A stretch of DNA of 64,000 bases from a virus (Duplodnaviria; Heunggongvirae; Uroviricota; Caudoviricetes). The position numbers and the translations under genes were made by a program. Shown piece after piece: positions 3,001-22,870 of this stretch. The stretch's first letter is position 1; each line of letters starts with the position of its first letter. The stretch spans positions 1 through 64,000 of the IMG/VR virus record IMGVR_UViG_3300039155_000018. One strand, given 5' to 3'. The notes under the pieces were generated by a model, which saw only the letters and a program-made list of their open reading frames with translations, did not search any database and was not told the DNA's origin.

Positions 3001-3669
3001 GTGGCTTTTGTTTATGGAGGAGAAAATGGAATGAACATGAATATCTTGATGATTGGGATGGGTTTTACCCTCACTGGATTGTCTTATCTACTTGCCACCG
3101 CGTTTGGGGTTCCTGTGGATTTGAATTGGTTGGAAATTATTGCTGTGGCAACTAGCTACTCTTGCACCATTCTGTTCATGCTACAGAAACGTGCTGCCTA
3201 TTTTTATGGCATTGTAAGCACTTTCTTCCTGTGCCTACTGTTCTTCACTCAAGGAATGATGGCACTATCTTTGTTTAATGGCATTTTGGTACTGTCTCTG
3301 GTTTACGGTTGGTTCCGGTGGGGGCCTGATGGTAAACCTCTCGCTGTGTCTTGGGTTAAAACTGAATGGAAAGCGTATGCCGGATACGTGCTCTTCTTTC
3401 TTGCTGTATGTGGACTATTCCGAATGATTGTAGGAGAGGGGTCAACACTCGATCTAACTTTAGCAGCAGGTAGTGCTACTGCTCAGCTAATGCTGGACAA
3501 CAAGCGTATTGAAAATTGGCTTGTATGGATTGTCATTAACGTGTTCTCGATTGGGTTTTTCTTGCAAGAAGGTTTGATTCTTCTGGCAATCCAGTTTATG
3601 ATGTTCCTTGTTAATGCAGTGGTGGCTCTCTACCGCTGGCACAAAGATTTGAAAAAGGAGGTTGTATGA
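3001..3669 (+). CDS. pnuC: polytopic membrane protein, PnuC-like nicotinamide riboside transporter candidate
   Basis: It is about 220 aa with several predicted TM helices and is W/N-rich near the C-terminus (NWLVWIVINVF). It is translationally coupled to the downstream NadR-like gene, the classic pnuC-nadR arrangement. Confidence 0.5.
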   Translation: MAFVYGGENGMNMNILMIGMGFTLTGLSYLLATAFGVPVDLNWLEIIAVATSYSCTILFMLQKRAAYFYGIVSTFFLCLLFFTQGMMALSLFNGILVLSLVYGWFRWGPDGKPLAVSWVKTEWKAYAGYVLFFLAVCGLFRMIVGEGSTLDLTLAAGSATAQLMLDNKRIENWLVWIVINVFSIGFFLQEGLILLAIQFMMFLVNAVVALYRWHKDLKKEVV

Positions 3670-4706
3670 GTGTAGGTATTGTTTTGGGAACCTTCCTACC
3701 TTTCCATAAAGGGCATGAGATGCTGATTAACTTCGCTAAGAACTACCCCGGCTGTGACAATTTGGTTGTCATCCTATCTTCTCGTTCGTTTGAGCCTATC
3801 ACTGGCCTTATGCGTTGGCTTGCTCTAAAATCCACATTTGAGGATGTATACATCTACCATCACGAAGACGACAATGCTCCTCAGAACCCTAAATCAGAAA
3901 ATGATGTGGAATTTTGGGACTACTGGAAGAAGGTAATTCGTCGTTCTATGTGGAGCTTTGAAGAGACTGATCCATGCTTTGTGTTTTCTTCGGAGTCTTA
4001 TGGTAGCAAGGTAGCTTCTTTGTTTGAAAACTGTCGTCATATTATGTTTGATTTCAATCGAGAGCATCAACAAGTCTCCGGCACTGTAATTCGAAACAAT
4101 CCGTTGGTGTTCCATGACAGCTTGAATATTCACATGGCGCGTTATTTGAAGAAACAGTTTGTTTTCTTTGGTGCAGAGAGTGTAGGTAAGACTACGTTCA
4201 CAAACGATGTGGCTGAATACTTCAATGCTAACATAACTGTGGAATATGCTCGGCCTTATTTGATGAGTCTTGAAGATAAAACTGTCACTGAAGAGAAGAT
4301 GGTTGATATCTTCAATGGACAGCATGCTCTTGAGGATATGGATCGTAACACTCTGTCTGGGAAGATTCTCAGTTTTATGGATACAGATATCCTCTCCACT
4401 TTCGGTTATGCTGAAATGATGGGGATGGATAGTTCTAATTTTGAGAATTTCAAGCTAAACACCGCAGATCGTGTTTATTTCGTACTCGGACAAGAGGAAG
4501 TATCTTTCGAAGAAGACATACTTCGTTACGGTGGAGATAGACGAGAGAGTAGTGATGAGTTCTGGCTTGATCTTCTGAAACGATACGGTGTGAAGGAAGA
4601 GAATATCCATTACGTGACAGGAGAATTCTTCCAGCGTCAACACTATGTGAAGAGTGTGGTACTAGAACATCTAGACAAACAATTTTATTTTGAGAGGGAA
4701 GTATGA
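3666..4706 (+). CDS. nadR: NadR-like bifunctional NMN adenylyltransferase / ribosylnicotinamide kinase
   Basis: The N-terminus has GTFLPFHKGH, the (H/T)xGH nucleotidyltransferase motif. A central FFGAESVGKTT Walker A fits the RNK domain. The 346-aa size fits NadR without the HTH domain. Confidence 0.65.
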   Translation: MSVGIVLGTFLPFHKGHEMLINFAKNYPGCDNLVVILSSRSFEPITGLMRWLALKSTFEDVYIYHHEDDNAPQNPKSENDVEFWDYWKKVIRRSMWSFEETDPCFVFSSESYGSKVASLFENCRHIMFDFNREHQQVSGTVIRNNPLVFHDSLNIHMARYLKKQFVFFGAESVGKTTFTNDVAEYFNANITVEYARPYLMSLEDKTVTEEKMVDIFNGQHALEDMDRNTLSGKILSFMDTDILSTFGYAEMMGMDSSNFENFKLNTADRVYFVLGQEEVSFEEDILRYGGDRRESSDEFWLDLLKRYGVKEENIHYVTGEFFQRQHYVKSVVLEHLDKQFYFEREV

Positions 4707-14760: not shown

Positions 14761-14979
14761 TTAATAGCTGGCGCACAAATCTACAGGTGTAAACTTTTTA
14801 CAGCTAGTGGTAGCTGTCGTCACCTCATAGCGGGACGGGCACTTAACAAGCATCTGCCTATGAGGCATAGGGCAGGCAGCGGGAGAAACTGACCACTGAT
14901 AGGAATACTGTGCTTCCGGTGTTGCATTTGCAATCGAAAAGCCTACAGACAAAGCCAGAAACGCGAGCATCTTTTTCAT
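14761..14979 (-). CDS. small secreted Cys-rich protein
   Basis: Taking the start at MKKMLAFLALSVGFSIANA gives a signal peptide. The mature part of about 50 aa has 6 Cys. Confidence 0.35.
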   Translation of the reverse strand: MKKMLAFLALSVGFSIANATPEAQYSYQWSVSPAACPMPHRQMLVKCPSRYEVTTATTSCKKFTPVDLCASY

Positions 14980-15494
14980 ACAGCCACCACCTGCCACTCG
15001 CCATTAATGCGGGAAAGTTTACACTTGATGCCTTCACGCACGGCTTTGACATAGTGCATTTGAAAAGCCAGACGATGATCGGTAGTCGAGAAAATCAGCA
15101 TTGGCGGAGCCTCGATTTTTGTTCCTTGTTGGCGCTCATTCTACCGCCTGTGTTTTCTTTGTCAACACCAGAGAAAAGAAAATTTTCTTTTGCTTCCCTG
15201 TTCTTTCGACCATAAGAAGGACCGCGCGCGAATAACACAACGCCCGGGAGGCTGTCAACCAGAAATTGCAAATTCTTTCATTGGCAAGCGTCGGGCTATA
15301 CAGGAACAGCGGACAAAAGAAAGCCAGCCAACAAGCATGAAGCTCGGAGGCTGGCCGCCTGGCGGCGCTAAAATTTCTTCGGAAAATAAATCGCACCCGG
15401 TTCTTTTAAAAATGTCCCGAGTCCTAGATAGTTTCGATCAAGTCCTCGCAAATCCGTCGAGTCCCCGGTTCTTTTCTATCAATTCCTAGACTTT

Positions 15495-15537
15495 GAACGA
15501 GTCCTTGGGATTTTGAAAACCAATCAAGGACTCGTTC
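15495..15537. promoter_or_regulatory. perfect 13-bp inverted repeat GAACGAGTCCTTG ... CAAGGACTCGTTC (17-bp spacer) in an ORF-free region
   Basis: Read directly in the sequence. The half-site GAGTCCT recurs 3 more times upstream (15417-15475). Confidence 0.5.
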
Positions 15538-15630
15538 AGTGGGGCGAAAGCGCCAGCGTAAATATTCTACTCCGCACCATACTGTCTTATCCCTTCCACC
15601 CGCCAACAAAGGCATCAACTCCTAAACGTC

Positions 15631-15987
15631 TCAGGTCCAGTAGATTTGCTTAATGTTCTTCTTTGACTTAATCAACGAGTAGCAAACCAAGCATGGACTA
15701 GACGGCATTGGTCTACCATTAGCTCCAACTCTAGCCACATACAAAGAATGTCCTCGATTCCTCTTGTCTTTTAGGACAGCGTGGAATTCTGCATGTCTGT
15801 ACTCTTTCCCGTCAACTCCTAACTTTTGGCTCAGGTTCTTCATAGTCGGATGAGTACAAGAATACGAGTTAAACCCCTCAGATACAATCTTCCCACGCTT
15901 ATCCACCACAATGGCGTAGTGTCGTTGTTGATGTCTAACGTATGGGATTTCTTTGGCTTTCTGCAAGCAATAATCAAGATGTTTCAC
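15631..15987 (-). CDS. CDA-fold zinc deaminase (dCMP/cytidine/TadA-like)
   Basis: It carries HAEFHAV and PCLVCY, the H(A/C)E ... PCxxC zinc-binding signature of the cytidine/deoxycytidylate deaminase superfamily. At 118 aa it is much shorter than T4 dCMP deaminase. Confidence 0.55.
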   Translation of the reverse strand: MKHLDYCLQKAKEIPYVRHQQRHYAIVVDKRGKIVSEGFNSYSCTHPTMKNLSQKLGVDGKEYRHAEFHAVLKDKRNRGHSLYVARVGANGRPMPSSPCLVCYSLIKSKKNIKQIYWT

Positions 15988-16212
15988 TTAATACTTTCCA
16001 CTCAACTCAAGTTGGAACATTCTCTTATCCGCCAAGGCGGTCATTAGCTGCCTTACACGGAGTTCTTCTGAGAAGGGCACACCCTTCCCTATAAGATACC
16101 CTTGCAGCGCCCCTTGATACCACGTTAAGGAATGTTGTGTTGGTGCCCTTATAATGGAGTCAAGGCAATAGTGGATGTTTTTGTAATGGGGGTCTTTGTT
16201 CCAGCCTAACAC
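15988..16212 (-). CDS. hypothetical protein
   Basis: A 74-aa ORF. Confidence 0.35.
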   Translation of the reverse strand: MLGWNKDPHYKNIHYCLDSIIRAPTQHSLTWYQGALQGYLIGKGVPFSEELRVRQLMTALADKRMFQLELSGKY

Positions 16213-16490
16213 TCGTCATAAACCTTTAGTTCGAGTTCGGAGACAGGGATTACTTCCAAGACCAAAACCTTTAAAACGTGGCGGATGTCCTCTAAGTCTA
16301 GCGCATCTTGATTGAGGATTTCCATAAGTTCTTTGTGTTTTCTGATTACATTGAGGCGGTTGTAAACCATTCCTTTTTCTTTCCAATTCTGAAACTTTTC
16401 TGACATACCAAGCCCTCCACTGTTTGTTTTGATGGACATAAGATAGGACAAAGCCCCGAAGCATGTCAAGAAGAATTTTCGTCTCTTCAC
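16206..16490 (-). CDS. hypothetical protein
   Basis: A 94-aa ORF. The real start may be the internal MSEKF. Confidence 0.35.
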   Translation of the reverse strand: MKRRKFFLTCFGALSYLMSIKTNSGGLGMSEKFQNWKEKGMVYNRLNVIRKHKELMEILNQDALDLEDIRHVLKVLVLEVIPVSELELKVYDEC

Positions 16491-16507
16491 ACATTCAGGG
16501 CTTTGTT

Positions 16508-16804
16508 TTAACGTTCTAGGAAGATGAGTCCTTCCTTGATTTTCTGTTTCATCTCAGAATCTCGTTCTTCCCCGCTCTTGGGAGAAAGTTGTCGATTCTG
16601 AATCTCCTCTTTACTCTGTTCAAAGCTTGGTAGACGACTGCGCTCGATTTGGTTCCGAGGTCCATACCCCGGTTGTACCCACAGAGAGTAGGCAACACCC
16701 ATCACAGTTACAATTACCACAGGTTTCCAATTCTTTTTCTTCCAAGACACCCAAGCTGCTAGAAGAATCAGAACGGGAACCATGATATTCAAAAGGAGTG
16801 CCAT
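16508..16804 (-). CDS. small integral membrane protein (NfeD-like partner candidate)
   Basis: It has two N-terminal TM helices (IMVPVLILLAAWV and PVVIVTVMGVAYSLWV) and lies immediately downstream of the SPFH-like gene. Confidence 0.4.
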   Translation of the reverse strand: MALLLNIMVPVLILLAAWVSWKKKNWKPVVIVTVMGVAYSLWVQPGYGPRNQIERSRLPSFEQSKEEIQNRQLSPKSGEERDSEMKQKIKEGLIFLER

Positions 16805-16816
16805 AGTCCCAACCTC

Positions 16817-17707
16817 TTACTTGTTCATGTGGAAGACAGGAAGAGGCTTACCTTCACCACCCATGATCGTGGTAGGCAGACGACCATCCCACTTCTCAGC
16901 TTCGATCTTACGAATCTCTAGTTCGCGCAGCTTCAGGACACGCGGGTCAACAGATTCTGCAAGGGTACGTTGTGCCATTGCTTCAGTTTCAGCACGTTCC
17001 TTCTCAATGGCACGTTGCAGACGAGCCTCTTGTAGCTCGCGTTCCAGCTTCACCTTAGAGATTTGCAGTTGAGCCTCTTCCTGTTGGATGGCTTCACGAC
17101 GCTCTGCTGCTGCTTCTTGTGCATTAGTAATGATTTTCGGATAGCGGATATCAGTCACACCCACGAATCGAACAGAGAATGGGGTACGCTCTTCAATCAC
17201 CTTGCTAATGTTGTTTCGCAGATCAGCATTAATCTTTTCATTGCTAGAAGCAATCTCCCCGATACTAAACTTGCTCAGGTATTCGCGCACCTGCGCTTGA
17301 ACAATCTGTGCAGCGTAAGTTTTGTAAACAGTGGCACTATCAATTACAGAGACATAATTGCTTTGTTGTTGCGGAGAAAGAGACGCAAACAGTTCCTCAG
17401 TCTTACGCGGGTTGATTGACAGCGTGGTACGAACCACAACATCCAGATTCAGCTTATCTTCAGGAATGAAGATAGTTAGGTTTTCAGTGTAAGTTTTGTC
17501 AGAAGCATCGAGCAGGACCAGCCGATCACAGTAGGCCACACAAGGTTCCAGTCGAAACTTGGAAGTGGGGATCAGGGTTTCCTGATAACCACTCTTGGTC
17601 ATGATCTTACCTACGTGAGCAGGCGGCACCTCTACAGCCTCGCCACAGCCTACCAGAATGCTTGCTGCAAGAGCCAGAGCACCAAATTTAACCATTTTCA
17701 TATTCAC
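16817..17707 (-). CDS. SPFH/band-7 (stomatin/prohibitin)-like lipoprotein
   Basis: The signal peptide has a lipobox (LVGC). The C-terminal region is an Ala/Glu/Arg/Gln-rich coiled coil of the kind found in band-7 proteins. Confidence 0.4.
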   Translation of the reverse strand: MNMKMVKFGALALAASILVGCGEAVEVPPAHVGKIMTKSGYQETLIPTSKFRLEPCVAYCDRLVLLDASDKTYTENLTIFIPEDKLNLDVVVRTTLSINPRKTEELFASLSPQQQSNYVSVIDSATVYKTYAAQIVQAQVREYLSKFSIGEIASSNEKINADLRNNISKVIEERTPFSVRFVGVTDIRYPKIITNAQEAAAERREAIQQEEAQLQISKVKLERELQEARLQRAIEKERAETEAMAQRTLAESVDPRVLKLRELEIRKIEAEKWDGRLPTTIMGGEGKPLPVFHMNK

Positions 17708-17744
17708 TTCTCCTCTTTAGTTAATAATTTGTTTGTTAAGTTTA

Positions 17745-17972
17745 TTACTCAAACCAACCAAGCTCAATCGCCTTGTTCAGAGCATTGATTAGGTTTTGGG
17801 CATCCTCTTCTGAACAGATTCGGAGATCACTCTCCGTTCCGATATCAATCACCGAAACACCCCCATCGGCGCTGTGCAAAATACCACTCGCTGTACGGTA
17901 ATAATCATTATCGTCTGCAAAACGAAGAACACTGATTTCTCCTGCTTGATTGGTGCGAATATCAAATTCCAT
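17745..17972 (-). CDS. hypothetical protein
   Basis: A 75-aa ORF. Confidence 0.4.
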   Translation of the reverse strand: MEFDIRTNQAGEISVLRFADDNDYYRTASGILHSADGGVSVIDIGTESDLRICSEEDAQNLINALNKAIELGWFE

Positions 17973-18007
17973 GTTGTTTCTCCTATCTTATTAATGTTGC
18001 TATAAGT

Positions 18008-18388
18008 TTACACGCTTTCAGGGCGTTGTACAAGCGACTCTTTCCAATCGCAATCTCCGGGGATGAAAGATTTGAAGCTGCAAGCCTCTACCCAATGATG
18101 ACCCTCTTCCCACCTATGATAGCCAGCAGTCGGCTCTTTTTTGTACAAGAAAGCCTCACCATCCGCATCGGTGGCCATCAAGTTATAATCGGGATGTACA
18201 TGGTCCCAATTGATAGAAGGCTTGGTAGGCTCCTTGATGCGGTACTCTATTGCATCCCAATTCCATGAAGCGAGCCGCCCTTCAAGTACCCTCCAGATGT
18301 GCTCGCCCTTCCGCCGAAATTCAACACTCTTCCCCTCCGCAAAAGCTTGCATCACCTCGATAGCTTTCAGGGTTTGTTCTTCGTTCAT
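18008..18388 (-). CDS. hypothetical Trp-rich protein
   Basis: A 126-aa ORF. Confidence 0.45.
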   Translation of the reverse strand: MNEEQTLKAIEVMQAFAEGKSVEFRRKGEHIWRVLEGRLASWNWDAIEYRIKEPTKPSINWDHVHPDYNLMATDADGEAFLYKKEPTAGYHRWEEGHHWVEACSFKSFIPGDCDWKESLVQRPESV

Positions 18389-18400
18389 CTCAGTTCCTCC

Positions 18401-18499
18401 TTAAATGTTGTTGTGAAGCATTGTAGCAGCTTGTTGAGCTACAAGCAATAGTCCTATGAACAAGATAAAACAGATGATCTTTTGAGCTTTAAGAGACAT
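18401..18499 (-). CDS. 32-aa hydrophobic peptide (below the ORF-track cut-off)
   Basis: The product is MSLKAQKIICFILFIGLLLVAQQAATMLHNNI, with GAGGA 8 nt upstream. Confidence 0.25.
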   Translation of the reverse strand: MSLKAQKIICFILFIGLLLVAQQAATMLHNNI

Positions 18500-18561
18500 T
18501 GCCGAGTCCTCTGTGTTTGTATGGGGAGATGATATCAAGTCCTCTACCTCTGGTCAACAAC

Positions 18562-18789
18562 TCATTTCACCTGCACACACGTATAGATGACGTTGGCTCG
18601 CTGGTGTCCTCGTGACAAACCAAGTATGCGCTTACCAGCAACTTCACACTCTTGTTGAGATGAGAAGCCTTGAATGGTTTGCGAGGATACTGCCGCAGCC
18701 TCTCCTGAGACATTAGGATCATTACTCACATAGATTGCTAGAATCAGTGCCCACATATTTATTCTCCTCTTAACTCCAGAGTGAATCAC
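18562..18789 (-). CDS. small secreted protein
   Basis: A 75-aa ORF with a signal-like N-terminus. Confidence 0.35.
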   Translation of the reverse strand: MIHSGVKRRINMWALILAIYVSNDPNVSGEAAAVSSQTIQGFSSQQECEVAGKRILGLSRGHQRANVIYTCVQVK

Positions 18790-19465
18790 GAATTTTAATG
18801 AGACGGATCAGCATATCTTCCTCTTCGGCTTTGAACTGCTGCTCCATTTGAGTATGTTTCTCGTTGAGTTCTTCCCACTCGCTGTCATGTGTACTACTGA
18901 ACAGGTTCTCACCCCTCTCTCGCTTACGATCATAGTAGGCCATCAGACCACTGTCAACGAAAGTGTCTCGATCTTTATTAGCCTTCCACCAATCGTAGAT
19001 CGCCTTCTGTTCCAGAGCAGCCTCATGTTGCCAGAGACAGTCTTCCTTCAGATCATCACTGAGTTCCCAAGCGAATGTATCGAGTCCCTTCTCATCCTCA
19101 ATGAAGCGCTCCAGAGAAGTGAACAGACACACAGGGATGCGGTGGCTAAGGTCGCACCACTCCCCAACAGGCAGGTTACCACCGAGTACGTGGGAATTAG
19201 ACTTCCAGTTCTTATAGAACACGCCTACAGAGTAGAACAGGTTGGGGATAAAGTACACAGCATCCTGCATTTTGTCAAGGGCGGTGTCAGTGAGCCAATA
19301 GGTGAAAGGTGCCCTCTGTTTGCAATCCTTCTCATACTCGTCCCAACCTTCAAAGCTAAGAGCTTGAGGGTTATGGAGTCCCGCTTTGGTGCGGAGCCAC
19401 TTGGAGAAACGAGAGTTGGACCAGTAATTCCACGCAGCCTGTTTACGGTAATATTTCAGTGCCAT
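18770..19465 (-). CDS. hypothetical protein
   Basis: A 231-aa ORF. Confidence 0.45.
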   Translation of the reverse strand: MALKYYRKQAAWNYWSNSRFSKWLRTKAGLHNPQALSFEGWDEYEKDCKQRAPFTYWLTDTALDKMQDAVYFIPNLFYSVGVFYKNWKSNSHVLGGNLPVGEWCDLSHRIPVCLFTSLERFIEDEKGLDTFAWELSDDLKEDCLWQHEAALEQKAIYDWWKANKDRDTFVDSGLMAYYDRKRERGENLFSSTHDSEWEELNEKHTQMEQQFKAEEEDMLIRLIKIRDSLWS

Positions 19466-19534
19466 TTATAAGTTCCTCCTATTAAAATAAAAGCCCACAC
19501 CTCCGAAGAAGTATGGGCGTAGTGTCTCAAGATT

Positions 19535-19777
19535 TTATTTAGCTGTCAAGCAGTTTTTGCAAAGACAAGTAGAATCTTCTACAGGCTCTGGGAGCGGGAG
19601 GAAAGTAGCTGTTGAAGTTACCTCTCCCATGCACCAGCAAGCACTACCACTTTTCCCGTCAAGCATTGCGCAGTATGTACCTTTGTTGCATTCAGGGCAG
19701 GAGTGGGTTGTAGTGCGTTGCTGAATCTCCTTCAATAGCTGCATTCGAGCGTCACCAGTTGAGTTCACATGCACCAC
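19535..19777 (-). CDS. Cys-rich zinc-ribbon protein
   Basis: It carries CPECN...CWC...CLCKNC. It lies directly upstream of the RNR N-terminal ORF. Confidence 0.4.
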   Translation of the reverse strand: MVHVNSTGDARMQLLKEIQQRTTTHSCPECNKGTYCAMLDGKSGSACWCMGEVTSTATFLPLPEPVEDSTCLCKNCLTAK

Positions 19778-20993
19778 CTGAACAAGCTTGAGCGCCCATA
19801 CTATCGACTTCTACAAACTTCTTCTCTTGTAGCTCTACAGAAAAATCTACATTCTGCACAGTCCGTTCGATTGTCTTCCACTTGTGAAGGTTGAAGCAAT
19901 CCTTTAGGCAGTTTGTCATTTCAAGAACATCATTGTTAAAGTAATTGTTAGCGAACTTTTTAGCGCGTCGCACCCAATCACGTTTCAACAGGTCTTCCTT
20001 TGCTTCAGGATCAAGCTTCAAGCCCCAGCCGTTGACTGTATCACAAGCCACCCACAGATTGTTGTTAAAGGCGTGCAGGCCATCTACAATCAAACCAGAC
20101 GCAAACATGCTAGCTTCGCCGTATTTATCCATAATCTGTTGTGCCGTGAACACTTCAGTGAACGGGGCTTGTGGGTATGCCTTATCACCCATCGCACTTA
20201 GCAAAGAGATACCAGCAAACCACTTACGGTTGTCGTAGATGTATTGCTCCACCTCGTTCCAGTCATCAACTGTAATGGTATTGGATACATTGTGCCGAAG
20301 ATTCGGATCAACACACAGCTCCACGTTAGTGCCATGCTCCACCCAATACTGCTGAGCCAGCTTCACATACTCTAGTTGTTTAACCCCCATCAAATCCTTC
20401 TTATAGATGCTACCTTCCTTACTGACAATCGGGAAGCTAACAACTTTGTCGGTTCCGGTATTAGACCACACACTGTTTTCCACCATCTTAGGGTTCTTTT
20501 CTATCATAAGGTGGAGCACGTCGTCTTGGTCATTCATCTGCACGTTACGGAAGTACATCGGAGAATGTTCCCCATGAATACCAGATGCAGTTCCAAGCAG
20601 GGTTGATGCGTTGCCCGACGGCTTTACACAAGTTGTACGAGCTGCCTGATTAATACCAATCATCTTTGCAACAACCTTGTTCCACTCTTTAACTACTTCG
20701 GCGCCGTCAACCATATTCTGCTTATCGAACAACACTTCAGGGTTATTCATCCAGCCGGTAATGCTTACGCCAATTAGTGCTTCCCGTTCAATAATCTCCT
20801 TAGATGCAGCAGAAAGATATTTAAAGTCAGTGTATCCTGCTTGTAGAGTACCAATAATCGAAGCAGCTTTGCAATTCGCAAGAAACTCTTCTCGGCTGTT
20901 GCAAGCAGAGCCACTAATTTCGCACAGGTTACATGCTTGGAAACCACTTCGCCCATCTGCCGTTTTCGGCAGTTTGCCAATCTCTACACCCAT
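19752..20993 (-). CDS. ribonucleotide reductase catalytic subunit, C-terminal ORF (NrdA/NrdJ-like part b)
   Basis: It has ACNLCEI, the NxCxE active-site motif, and the C-terminal redox pair CSGGAC, which resembles the CxSGAC tail of NrdA. It has its own AGGAG RBS and ATG. Confidence 0.75.
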   Translation of the reverse strand: MGVEIGKLPKTADGRSGFQACNLCEISGSACNSREEFLANCKAASIIGTLQAGYTDFKYLSAASKEIIEREALIGVSITGWMNNPEVLFDKQNMVDGAEVVKEWNKVVAKMIGINQAARTTCVKPSGNASTLLGTASGIHGEHSPMYFRNVQMNDQDDVLHLMIEKNPKMVENSVWSNTGTDKVVSFPIVSKEGSIYKKDLMGVKQLEYVKLAQQYWVEHGTNVELCVDPNLRHNVSNTITVDDWNEVEQYIYDNRKWFAGISLLSAMGDKAYPQAPFTEVFTAQQIMDKYGEASMFASGLIVDGLHAFNNNLWVACDTVNGWGLKLDPEAKEDLLKRDWVRRAKKFANNYFNNDVLEMTNCLKDCFNLHKWKTIERTVQNVDFSVELQEKKFVEVDSMGAQACSGGACELNW

Positions 20994-21084
20994 CTTGTTA
21001 CTCCTAATCTCTTAGGGGCTTAATCATTTCTGTTAAGCTCACATATTTTCACATGTGTGCGGACTATATCACCACCCTAGTCTC

Positions 21085-21765
21085 TTAGGGGCTAACCGTA
21101 CGGAAACTCTCATGGATTTTATATTGGAAGCTAGGTAACACATGCGGAGCAACCATTTCCATAAACTTGTAAAAATCCTTCATTCGAAGGCGCAGATAGT
21201 AATACTGATTCTGCCTATTAATGTTGAACTCAAGGTCAAGCTTTTCTTTCAAAGCTTTCTTCAGGATAAACAAATCCCCATAAGAAAGTCGTTTCATATT
21301 CAAGGTAACATTGTAGCTCCCGTTAACCAACCCCCTTTTAGGGTCAGGTTTAGTTGTCACAAAAGAGCCGTCGCACATGTAGAGGATTGCCAACGCCTCT
21401 GCGTCCAGCATCTTCAAAGCGTGCGGGTCAATCCCTTTATACTTTTCCGTATAAATTCGCCCATGAAGCGTAGTCAAAAGCGGGTGACGCTTACTCTCCA
21501 GCCGCAATTGAGGCTTACGGTCACACCCGTCAACATTGTAATCCTTCCTTTCAGAAACCCTACACCCAGTGATTTGCTCAAGAACATTTTTGCAGAAGAG
21601 AATATAATCCTCGTTATCTCTTTTCATGTTCATGGCAAAGAAGGCATTAGTCCCCTCTGTACGGTTCGGTGGAAAGTACAACCCACCGTCACCCATAACA
21701 ATGTAGCTGAGCAGTTTTACAAGTTCTTTCTTATTCACAGTTTCCATAGTCTCTACACTTCCCAT
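21085..21765 (-). CDS. LAGLIDADG-family homing endonuclease inserted in the RNR gene
   Basis: A single LLSYIVMGDGGLYF LAGLIDADG-type motif lies near the N-terminus. The 226-aa gene sits between the two RNR ORFs on the same strand. Confidence 0.55.
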   Translation of the reverse strand: MGSVETMETVNKKELVKLLSYIVMGDGGLYFPPNRTEGTNAFFAMNMKRDNEDYILFCKNVLEQITGCRVSERKDYNVDGCDRKPQLRLESKRHPLLTTLHGRIYTEKYKGIDPHALKMLDAEALAILYMCDGSFVTTKPDPKRGLVNGSYNVTLNMKRLSYGDLFILKKALKEKLDLEFNINRQNQYYYLRLRMKDFYKFMEMVAPHVLPSFQYKIHESFRTVSP

Positions 21766-21868
21766 ATCGGGTTAGCACGGGATTGTCTTCGCCTTTGAGC
21801 GGTCAGAGTTTCCCCGTTTTTAGGTTAGTTATTCAAAGCAGATCACTCTGCTAGGCCGCTAGTAGTTC

Positions 21869-22870
21869 TTAGTGAACAGTCAACGGATTGTAGGTAAATT
21901 CAAGATTCTCAGTAAAGATAAAAGCAGGCTCCCCGTAGTCACGTACAGACTTCATAATGTTTGCCCACTCTTCACGAGTAATTTCGTCGCGCAATAGCAT
22001 TACACTATTGTTACTTCGGCCTCTGGAGGGGTTGGTGATAAACCAATCTCCAGTTTTAGCCTTCAGCATCTCGTCGTCATCTTTAGAGAAGAGACAAATT
22101 GTTGCGCTCCTGCGAACACCGCCCGAAAGAACAGCGTCTGCCATAAACATTACAAAGTCATAAGCTGTAATCGGCTTCATTGCTACGGACTCTTTACTCT
22201 CTGCAATCTGCGCATCCAACAACTGCTCACACTTCTGTAAAGCAATCCGCAGACCGTCTGGACCCGGAGCTTTAAATCCTCCGCTAATCTCTGCACCTTT
22301 GGGGCGAATCTTGCTGAAGTCGAAGTGAACCTTACAACCCTTGTACTCTGGGAATGTACCACCATCCTCAAAGTAGCTACTGAGCAGCACACCAAAAGAA
22401 TCAGCCCAGCCTTCAATACTGTCTGGGATGGTGTAGACCTTGCTCTTTTTATCGAAACGTTTCTGAATTTTAGGAAGCTTTGCTACGTGGTGCTTTTGCA
22501 CGCTGAAGCCGACTCCACATCCACACAACAGCAAATACATCGACTCCTGAAACGCTGCTGCTCGGTCAATGTGAGTTGACACGCAGTTGTAGAGCCGGGC
22601 GTTGTGCTTGAAGAGTTGTTCACCGCCAAACTGCAAAGCTCGTTGAGCGCCTAGAACACTTTTCTTCTTATAAGCATTTTCTGCAAACTGAATAAGTTCT
22701 CCTAGTTCTGTAGTCATTACATCTTTATATTTGATGCGGTGCATATTCATTACACGTTCTACAGATTCTTCCCAAGTCTCGTAACGACCCTCGCCATCCA
22801 GCCACCGGGAGTAACCCATGTAGAATTTGGATTGGGCCATCATTTCTTTACCAACACCGCTGTTAATCAA
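21869..22870 (-). CDS. ribonucleotide reductase catalytic subunit, N-terminal ORF (part a)
   Basis: It carries LSGGVRRSATICLF, resembling the GGVRGGAATLFYP region of class I/II RNR alpha, and an upstream LLCGCGVGFSV candidate for the first active-site Cys. It ends at an in-frame stop about 100 nt before the endonuclease gene. Confidence 0.65.
   Translation of the reverse strand: MINSGVGKEMMAQSKFYMGYSRWLDGEGRYETWEESVERVMNMHRIKYKDVMTTELGELIQFAENAYKKKSVLGAQRALQFGGEQLFKHNARLYNCVSTHIDRAAAFQESMYLLLCGCGVGFSVQKHHVAKLPKIQKRFDKKSKVYTIPDSIEGWADSFGVLLSSYFEDGGTFPEYKGCKVHFDFSKIRPKGAEISGGFKAPGPDGLRIALQKCEQLLDAQIAESKESVAMKPITAYDFVMFMADAVLSGGVRRSATICLFSKDDDEMLKAKTGDWFITNPSRGRSNNSVMLLRDEITREEWANIMKSVRDYGEPAFIFTENLEFTYNPLTVH

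Follow-up and report, generated by a model that had tools for sequence, protein, structure and literature searches.

A phage gene for a lipoprotein of the SPFH/Band 7 superfamily and the gene for a small integral membrane protein that follows it, here called its partner, are strictly linked and co-inherited in phages and in Comamonadaceae. We analyzed this pair in a stretch of 64,000 nt, denoted as the window, which covers positions 1-64,000 of the IMG/VR record IMGVR_UViG_3300039155_000018. The pair appears there as two closely spaced minus-strand open reading frames (ORFs): 16817..17707, of 296 aa when read from GTG, and 16508..16804, of 98 aa. A phage SPFH lipoprotein gene is known and common cargo; the fixed pairing with the partner is the new part. 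As a whole, the pair is best explained, with a confidence slightly above even, as a mobile two-gene envelope module in which a periplasmic SPFH ring or cage and a dedicated inner-membrane partner would serve envelope protection.

Linkage of the SPFH gene and the partner gene

Linkage was scored with hidden Markov models (HMMs) of the SPFH and partner families, which were run on the six-frame ORFs of every fetched locus. In the first set, 29 of the 37 loci had a partner homologue on the strand of the SPFH gene and just downstream of it, among them 22 of 29 viral contigs from IMG/VR. In the scan of GTDB species genomes, the SPFH gene was followed by a partner homologue in 17 of 17 loci, and in 19 of 19 bacterial loci when the loci L005 and L008 are counted with them. 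The pairing is far beyond chance. When the pairwise identities of the SPFH proteins were compared with those of the partners in a mirror-tree analysis of 41 distinct pairs, the correlation was r=0.85, a value that none of 2000 permutations reached. Of the two proteins, the partner is the faster-evolving one: its mean identity is 38%, compared with 65% for the SPFH protein.

Tight phage packing could also have placed a small ORF unrelated to the SPFH gene at this site, as phage genomes are dense with small hypothetical ORFs and the PAK_P3 and phiKZ-like SPFH homologues have no partner. However, the adjacency is kept in 47 loci of phages and bacteria together with the co-inheritance, and we found no other co-conserved neighbour around the module of the window. 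Chance adjacency is refuted by the linkage counts and the mirror-tree result, and we regard it as hardly credible.

In six loci without a detected partner homologue (ACP17, L026, L028 and L030-L032), and also in the Vibrio phage KVP40, the gene next to the SPFH gene encodes a protein of 103-134 aa with two transmembrane (TM) helices, a TYGP(K/R)-like motif after the second helix (TM2) and a charged tail. The alignment of these divergent proteins with the partner family by hhalign gave a probability of 59.5% and E=9e-5 over only 34 columns, and a shared architecture is all that we claim for them. The KVP40 protein of this type, KVP40.0338 (L039 3413..3772), carries a PF04186 note in GenBank, which was not reproduced with the current Pfam.

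The SPFH lipoprotein and its two-transmembrane partner

The 5' region of the SPFH gene reads GAGGAG-aa-GTG-aat-ATG, where the Shine-Dalgarno sequence has a spacing of 8 nt to ATG 17701 and of 2 nt to GTG 17707. Because of this spacing, and because the metagenomic protein P0005, which is 97% identical to the SPFH protein, has 294 aa, the true start is most likely ATG 17701 rather than GTG 17707, giving a product of 294 aa. The partner gene lies 3' of the SPFH gene after a gap of 12 nt in the window, and the two genes overlap by 4 bp in the Comamonas loci; translation of the partner is probably coupled to that of the SPFH gene. The features of the pair, all on the minus strand, are as follows.

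17710..17715, minus strand: ribosome-binding site GAGGAG of the SPFH gene, read directly from the sequence
16817..17701, minus strand: SPFH/Band 7 lipoprotein gene, 294 aa from ATG 17701 (ORF, PF01145, phrog_200, AlphaFold2 (AF2) model, Foldseek)
17645..17701, minus strand: predicted lipoprotein signal peptide MKMVKFGALALAASILVG and lipidated Cys, with lipobox LVGC and Gly at +2 (sequence)
17066..17632, minus strand: SPFH (Band 7) domain, residues 26-214 in GTG numbering (Pfam envelope)
16892..17137, minus strand: predicted long helix rich in Ala, Glu, Arg and Gln, residues 191-272 (AF2 helices 191-252 and 255-272)
16859..16891, minus strand: C-terminal motif W273-x-G275-x-x-P278...G283 after the long helix (invariant columns of alignment A3)
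16813..16818, minus strand: ribosome-binding site AAGAGG of the partner gene, located 8 nt before ATG 16804 and overlapping the SPFH stop codon TAA (16817-16819)
16508..16804, minus strand: partner gene, 98-aa small integral membrane protein (ORF, homologue family, linkage)
16679..16801, minus strand: predicted TM hairpin of the partner, helices 2-23 and 27-42, with the basic loop WKKKNWK (AF2 model)
16622..16675, minus strand: most conserved segment of the partner, right after TM2, QPGYGPRNQIERSRLPSF (family consensus QPSYLPKGxIxRSxxPxF)
16532..16573, minus strand: predicted amphipathic helix at the C-terminus of the partner, residues 78-91, with EGLxF at its end (AF2 model, alignment A4)

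The Band_7 profile (PF01145) matched the SPFH protein with E=3.9e-13 and 50.3 bits against a gathering score of 23.6, and the match spans residues 26-214, or profile positions 2-172 of 176. PHROG 200, named 'lipoprotein', matched residues 3-295 at profile positions 81-360 of 379 with E=1.2e-52. No NCBIfam family matched at E<=0.1, including the HflK/HflC equivalogs TIGR01933 and TIGR01932, and the search of PDB sequences with the SPFH profile returned the stomatin of P. horikoshii only (E=0.002). An HflK/HflC equivalog was rejected since there was no NCBIfam match, the lipobox replaces the TM segment, and a single SPFH gene stands beside a 98-aa neighbour that is not an SPFH protein.

An AF2 model of the monomer, built from 52 homologues, had a predicted local distance difference test score (pLDDT) of 75.8 and placed a signal helix, a beta-rich SPFH1, an alpha/beta SPFH2, a helix of about 80 residues and a disordered tip in this order. 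Searching with the model, Foldseek returned prohibitin (human complex), HflK/C, QmcA-YbbJ, erlin, stomatin and flotillin over 260-300 columns with E=1e-11 to 1e-6. The best TM-scores and the lowest root-mean-square deviations among the solved structures were those of HflK/C chains, 9cz2 (TMq 0.61 at 6.6 Å) and 7wi3_B (TMq 0.58 at 6.1 Å), and the model also resembles SPFH proteins from many phages and giant viruses. At the level of the predicted fold, the SPFH protein is shown to be a member of the SPFH/Band 7 superfamily with the full-length architecture of cage formers. The structurally characterized full-length SPFH proteins all form a ring or cage, and by analogy the phage protein is expected to oligomerize in this way.

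The lipobox, tested with the pattern [LVI][ASTVI][GAS]C, was present in 50 of the 52 homologues, and the Cys followed by Gly at +2 was nearly invariant. This is a textbook signal, which predicts that the SPFH protein is a lipid-anchored lipoprotein, and the SPFH domain begins 4 residues past the Cys to be lipidated. In alignment A3, a Cys56-x3-Cys60 pair within the domain was invariant, and the mature protein had exactly two Cys in 51 of 52 homologues; the pair would fit a disulfide in the oxidizing periplasm. The long helix is, in the model, equivalent to the coiled-coil wall in SPFH cages, and the W273...G283 motif that follows it is a candidate for a cap or closure segment. The preliminary description of the window, which was made from its letters alone, had already pointed to the lipoprotein signal with the LVGC lipobox, found here at MKMVKFGALALAASILVG-C, to a globular region followed by a long Ala/Glu/Arg/Gln coiled coil, which corresponds to the SPFH region and the helix 191-272 of the model, and to the SPFH/band-7 identity, which the PF01145 and Foldseek matches bear out. 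Neither Pfam nor PHROGs returned a spanin or an unrelated coiled-coil profile, the findings that this description had set against its own reading.

Directly downstream, that description had seen a small two-TM protein, and the helices 2-23 and 27-42 of an operon-like, linked gene agree with it. In Pfam (E<=0.1, including PF01957), PHROGs, NCBIfam and PADLOC, no match to the 98-aa partner was found. A profile search, however, collected 209 homologues of 94-126 aa, all of them 'hypothetical' and without Pfam domains, and an exhaustive HMMER search of 1.84 billion representatives gave 239 partner clusters, 157 of them at E<=1e-10, where the count of about 240 refers to clusters at 50% identity. 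The homologues in the HMMER search were all stand-alone small proteins with no fusions, and the usual length in the family is about 96-105 aa. Judged from these sequence matches, the partner is a member of a real but unannotated, newly defined family.

In alignment A4, the family has the order M-x-L-L-L-N, TM1, a basic loop, TM2, QPSYLPKGxIxRSxxPxF, a charged stretch and a C-terminal EGLxF. Q44, P45, Y47 and R55 of the partner are invariant, and S46, P49, K50, G51 and F61 are nearly so. The AF2 model of the partner (pLDDT 79) consisted of a helical hairpin, an extended segment of about 35 residues and one short helix with no beta strands, and no match was found when the PDB was searched for its fold (best E=6.8). 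The preliminary description had likened the partner to NfeD; this resemblance fell away, as there was no PF01957 or other Pfam match, no beta strand in the AF2 model and no PDB fold match, and NfeD was rejected as its identity. In 51 sequences, the loop between the helices had a net charge of +3.3 and almost no acidic residues, compared with a long tail of about zero. By the positive-inside rule, this difference suggests that the tail is periplasmic, in the same compartment as the SPFH domain.

The arrangement is comparable with the SPFH-NfeD operons of E. coli (QmcA-YbbJ, PDB 8z5g) and P. horikoshii (stomatin PH1511/PH1510), in which a co-inherited gene likewise follows the SPFH gene and encodes a small membrane protein whose TM helices are N-terminal. 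Cage formers of the QmcA type have the same SPFH1/2, coiled-coil and C-terminal architecture as that predicted for the phage protein. In contrast, NfeD has an OB-fold (beta-barrel) domain that the phage partner lacks, and QmcA uses a TM hairpin as its anchor, whereas the phage protein has a lipobox Cys. QmcA-YbbJ forms a cytoplasmic cage of 26 heterodimers (PMC13086221), and while this cage protrudes into the cytoplasm, the phage SPFH protein is predicted to be periplasmic.

Carriers and genomic surroundings of the pair

Relatives of the SPFH protein were found by tblastn in 135 phage records, of which 60 were from Vibrio, 58 from Pseudomonas and 11 from Aeromonas, with a few from Acidovorax, Alteromonas, Variovorax and Xanthomonas. 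Most carriers of the SPFH gene are large virulent myoviruses, and some of the relatives are already annotated as 'SPFH domain / band 7 family protein' or 'Stomatin-like protein'. The phage lipoproteins of PHROG 200 belong to the same SPFH family with identities of 29-66%, for example KVP40.0339, PAK_P3 gp41, the 'Stomatin-like protein' of Pseudomonas phage 254, the ORFs of the T4-like phages 44RR, Aeh1 and RB43, and Sajous1 gp200; none of the reports on these lipoproteins mentions a conserved partner. Band 7 ORFs were already listed for T4-like phages in 2006 (PMC1524935), and mass spectrometry of crude preparations detected SPFH proteins of Vi01-like phages and of Erwinia jumbo phages, which shows that they are expressed. 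With PHROG 200, 135 phage records and phage papers from 2006 to 2026 that mention SPFH genes, the view in the preliminary description that this is unusual cargo did not hold. Papers of 2020 and 2026 call the function of phage SPFH proteins 'poorly understood' or 'unclear'.

A protein with a described phenotype is PM0222 of Pasteurella multocida, an HflK/C-like SPFH protein of a lambda-like prophage, which was found in outer-membrane vesicles, signals through TLR1/2, the receptor pair for triacylated lipoproteins, and whose deletion alters capsule, adhesion and virulence (PMC9872710). PM0222 is likened to the phage SPFH protein by its published description only, and no Pasteurella or Mannheimia phage was among the 135 records matched by tblastn.

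Chromosomes of Comamonas, Lampropedia and Acidovorax contained close homologues of the SPFH protein (63-73% identity), as did one metagenome-assembled genome of Thiopseudomonas. In Comamonas terrigena, the pair is at the end of a prophage, in the order RecT, YqaJ, H-NS, SPFH, partner, Xis-like and integrase, and its neighbours there are likely lysogenic-conversion genes. At this locus (L005 7754..10690, PDEA01000001), an H-NS-like gene (PF00816) directly precedes the pair, and the Xis-like and integrase genes come after it. The flanks at other Comamonadaceae loci are genes for FBPase, ketoacyl synthase, GGDEF, TctC, MCP, an ion channel, DsbC and Fic, so that the genes flanking the bacterial pair vary from species to species. 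The module was not found by tblastn in 72,556 plasmids. Because the pair lies between ordinary cellular genes at sites that differ, and in one case beside a prophage integrase, its distribution has the pattern of a mobile, self-sufficient accessory cassette common to cells and viruses.

The window itself is that of a large myovirus, with genes for tail sheath, baseplate wedge, tape measure, DNA polymerase I, primase-helicase, class II ribonucleotide reductase (RNR) and nicotinamide-nucleotide adenylyltransferase (NMNAT). The megablast search of window positions 15000-19500 against 50,697 phage records gave no match, and the phage is therefore new at the DNA level. No lysis gene (holin or endolysin) was found adjoining the pair in the ORF list, Pfam or PHROGs, which bears on the reading of the pair as a spanin-like lysis component, in which the lipoprotein in the outer membrane and its partner in the inner membrane would span the periplasm and bring about membrane fusion at lysis. 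An adjacent, translationally coupled lipoprotein and inner-membrane gene with a predicted periplasmic tail would suit such a function, and Gly at +2 is compatible with outer-membrane sorting by the E. coli rule, although sorting rules vary by host. However, only Band_7 and phrog_200 matched, with no spanin family in Pfam or PHROGs; the layout is the reverse of Rz/Rz1, where a small proline-rich outer-membrane lipoprotein goes with a type II inner-membrane protein that has a periplasmic coiled coil, both encoded in the lysis cassette, whereas here the coiled coil belongs to the large lipoprotein and a small hairpin makes up the membrane partner; and the pair stands alone among housekeeping genes in Comamonadaceae. 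With a 294-aa SPFH lipoprotein, a two-TM hairpin partner and no lysis-gene neighbours, a two-component spanin was ruled out, and a spanin-like role in general is very improbable.

The preliminary description had placed the pair next to a deaminase gene and an ORF-free region. Both exist in the window, the region as an ORF-poor stretch, but neither is adjacent to the pair: the small ORFs 16206..16490 and 15988..16212 separate the partner gene from the dCMP deaminase gene, which is the third gene downstream of it, and the ORF-poor stretch lies beyond the deaminase gene, further downstream. No tRNA was found in this stretch and no Rfam match even at E<=0.1. The RNR gene is split, probably by an intron or homing-endonuclease insertion. 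A 78-aa ORF near the stretch had no family match, and its product may be a small secreted or periplasmic phage protein. These and other features of the window are as follows.

15631..15987: dCMP deaminase gene (PF00383 E=5.5e-7, phrog_174)
About 15000..15630: ORF-poor stretch, some 630 bp long, on the downstream side of the deaminase gene
15494-15507 and 15525-15538: perfect 14-nt inverted repeat in the ORF-poor stretch
15165..15138, minus strand: strong promoter-like site TTGACA-16-TAGAAT
14761..14997, minus strand: 78-aa ORF; its signal peptide MKKMLAFLALSVGFSIANA looks cleavable, and the mature part has four Cys
19752..22870, minus strand: split class II (B12-dependent) RNR, as ORFs 21869..22870 (PF21995, PF17975) and 19752..20993 (phrog_367)
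21085..21765: LAGLIDADG_2 homing-endonuclease ORF (PF03161 E=7e-24) between the RNR halves
3666..4706, plus strand: NMNAT gene (phrog_3462 E=1e-57), an NAD-salvage auxiliary gene

Proposed mechanism and function

In the arrangement that we infer for the two proteins, the SPFH protein would be exported and anchored through the lipid on its N-terminal Cys, where SPFH proteins usually have a TM helix or hairpin. Because the SPFH domain begins only 4 residues past this Cys, it would lie flat on the periplasm-facing leaflet of the membrane, and a ring or cage would be formed through the long helix and closed by the conserved W-x-G-x-x-P segment. The partner would be a hairpin in the inner membrane, with the QPSYxPKG segment and the charged tail in the periplasm, where they would bind the SPFH assembly. 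It could thereby fill the role of NfeD, nucleating or anchoring the cage or being enclosed by it, or that of a client, without being NfeD. The most conserved residues of the partner lie right at the surface of the inner membrane, and for this reason we lean towards a cage apposed to the inner membrane; the lipoprotein may instead be held by the outer membrane. Through this assembly, a patch of the inner membrane would be compartmentalized or stabilized, keeping out superinfecting phages or envelope damage.

The function is the weakest step, and here we infer that envelope protection of the carrier cell or superinfection exclusion is to be favoured over control of FtsH and placed well above a spanin. 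The preliminary description had offered lysis timing, superinfection exclusion and the modulation of host proteases such as FtsH, all of them conjectures. Protection or exclusion is preferred because of the cassette-like spread, the moron position in the prophage and the carriage by both cells and virulent phages, and FtsH control is ranked lower because the HflK/C signature is absent and the carriers are mostly virulent. The HflK/HflC-FtsH complex (PDB 7vhq, 7wi3 and 9cz2) has a periplasm-facing SPFH cage on the inner membrane, as proposed for the phage protein, but it is built from a K/C heterodimer encoded by two adjacent SPFH genes, while the phage SPFH protein looks like a homo-oligomer from one gene. 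As a mimic of HflK/C, a periplasmic SPFH cage would capture or modulate FtsH or a similar protease, guarding phage proteins or biasing the lysis-lysogeny decision in temperate carriers. It would be on the same side of the membrane as HflK/C, whose chains superimpose best on the SPFH model (9cz2, 7wi3_B). The pair of the C. terrigena prophage lies between the recombination genes and the integrase, the region in which cIII is found in lambda. The same proposal was also made earlier for AH14b_p02 (PMC4936722). However, no NCBIfam family for HflK or HflC matched and the identity to HflK/C is only 15-16%; the anchor is a predicted lipid, not a TM helix; the pair includes a dedicated partner, which HflK/C lacks; and most carriers are large virulent myoviruses without a lysogeny decision. 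We regard mimicry of HflK/C as quite unlikely.

Closer to envelope protection is a dedicated superinfection exclusion system in the style of T5 Llp or T4 Imm/Sp, where the lipoprotein and the small inner-membrane protein would block a receptor or DNA entry. Exclusion genes typically encode a lipoprotein and a small membrane protein, and the moron-like site beside the prophage integrase, the patchy spread at variable Comamonadaceae loci and the many unrelated virulent phage carriers all agree with such a system. It overlaps the functional half of our best explanation and is inseparable from it here. Against it, neither PADLOC nor the literature gave support, and a cage-forming scaffold of about 290 aa is far more elaborate than the known exclusion lipoproteins. 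As an explanation in its own right, it is unlikely.

Several observations weigh against a two-protein envelope module itself. We found no literature on the function of phage SPFH proteins or on a link between SPFH proteins and defence or exclusion, and at E<=0.1 in PADLOC-DB v2 neither the SPFH protein nor the partner matched any defence family, by which a known defence system was also rejected. The SPFH model is that of a monomer, and its pLDDT is only 57-65 for residues 21-60. The topology of the partner tail comes from the positive-inside rule alone, and the 15 residues past TM2 are mildly basic (+1.3). Pseudomonas phage 254 has an inserted 73-aa ORF that separates its SPFH and partner genes. 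In the distant PAK_P3 and phiKZ-like SPFH homologues (about 30% identity), the genes downstream encode soluble proteins and no membrane partner is present, and therefore the SPFH protein can act alone in some lineages. RNA-seq data of PAK_P3 were considered for timing and set aside as uninformative, as gp41, a distant homologue without a partner, is not among the genes named as early.

Returning to the envelope module, it may represent a distinct class of SPFH system with a lipid-anchored periplasmic cage, the assembly or cargo of which would be set by the hairpin partner instead of NfeD. This cassette would pass between phages and Comamonadaceae and wall off a patch of the inner membrane, and thereby block the DNA entry of competing phages or sequester a membrane machine of the host such as FtsH. 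We put this forward tentatively, as a possibility on the doubtful side. If true, it would give the first assigned function to the widespread phage SPFH genes. Such genes have appeared in descriptions of phage and giant-virus genomes for some 20 years, and their role is still found unclear in papers up to 2026.

Taken together, a large SPFH subfamily is accompanied by a single dedicated membrane partner that lacks annotation, and bacterial chromosomes carry this pair too. The theme of an SPFH protein with a partner is thus widened beyond NfeD to a lipid-anchored and probably periplasm-facing form, and the pair offers a concrete two-protein system to express, image and delete. If the pair does exclude phages or stabilize the envelope, this would bear on the competition between phages and on the choice of phages for therapy cocktails.

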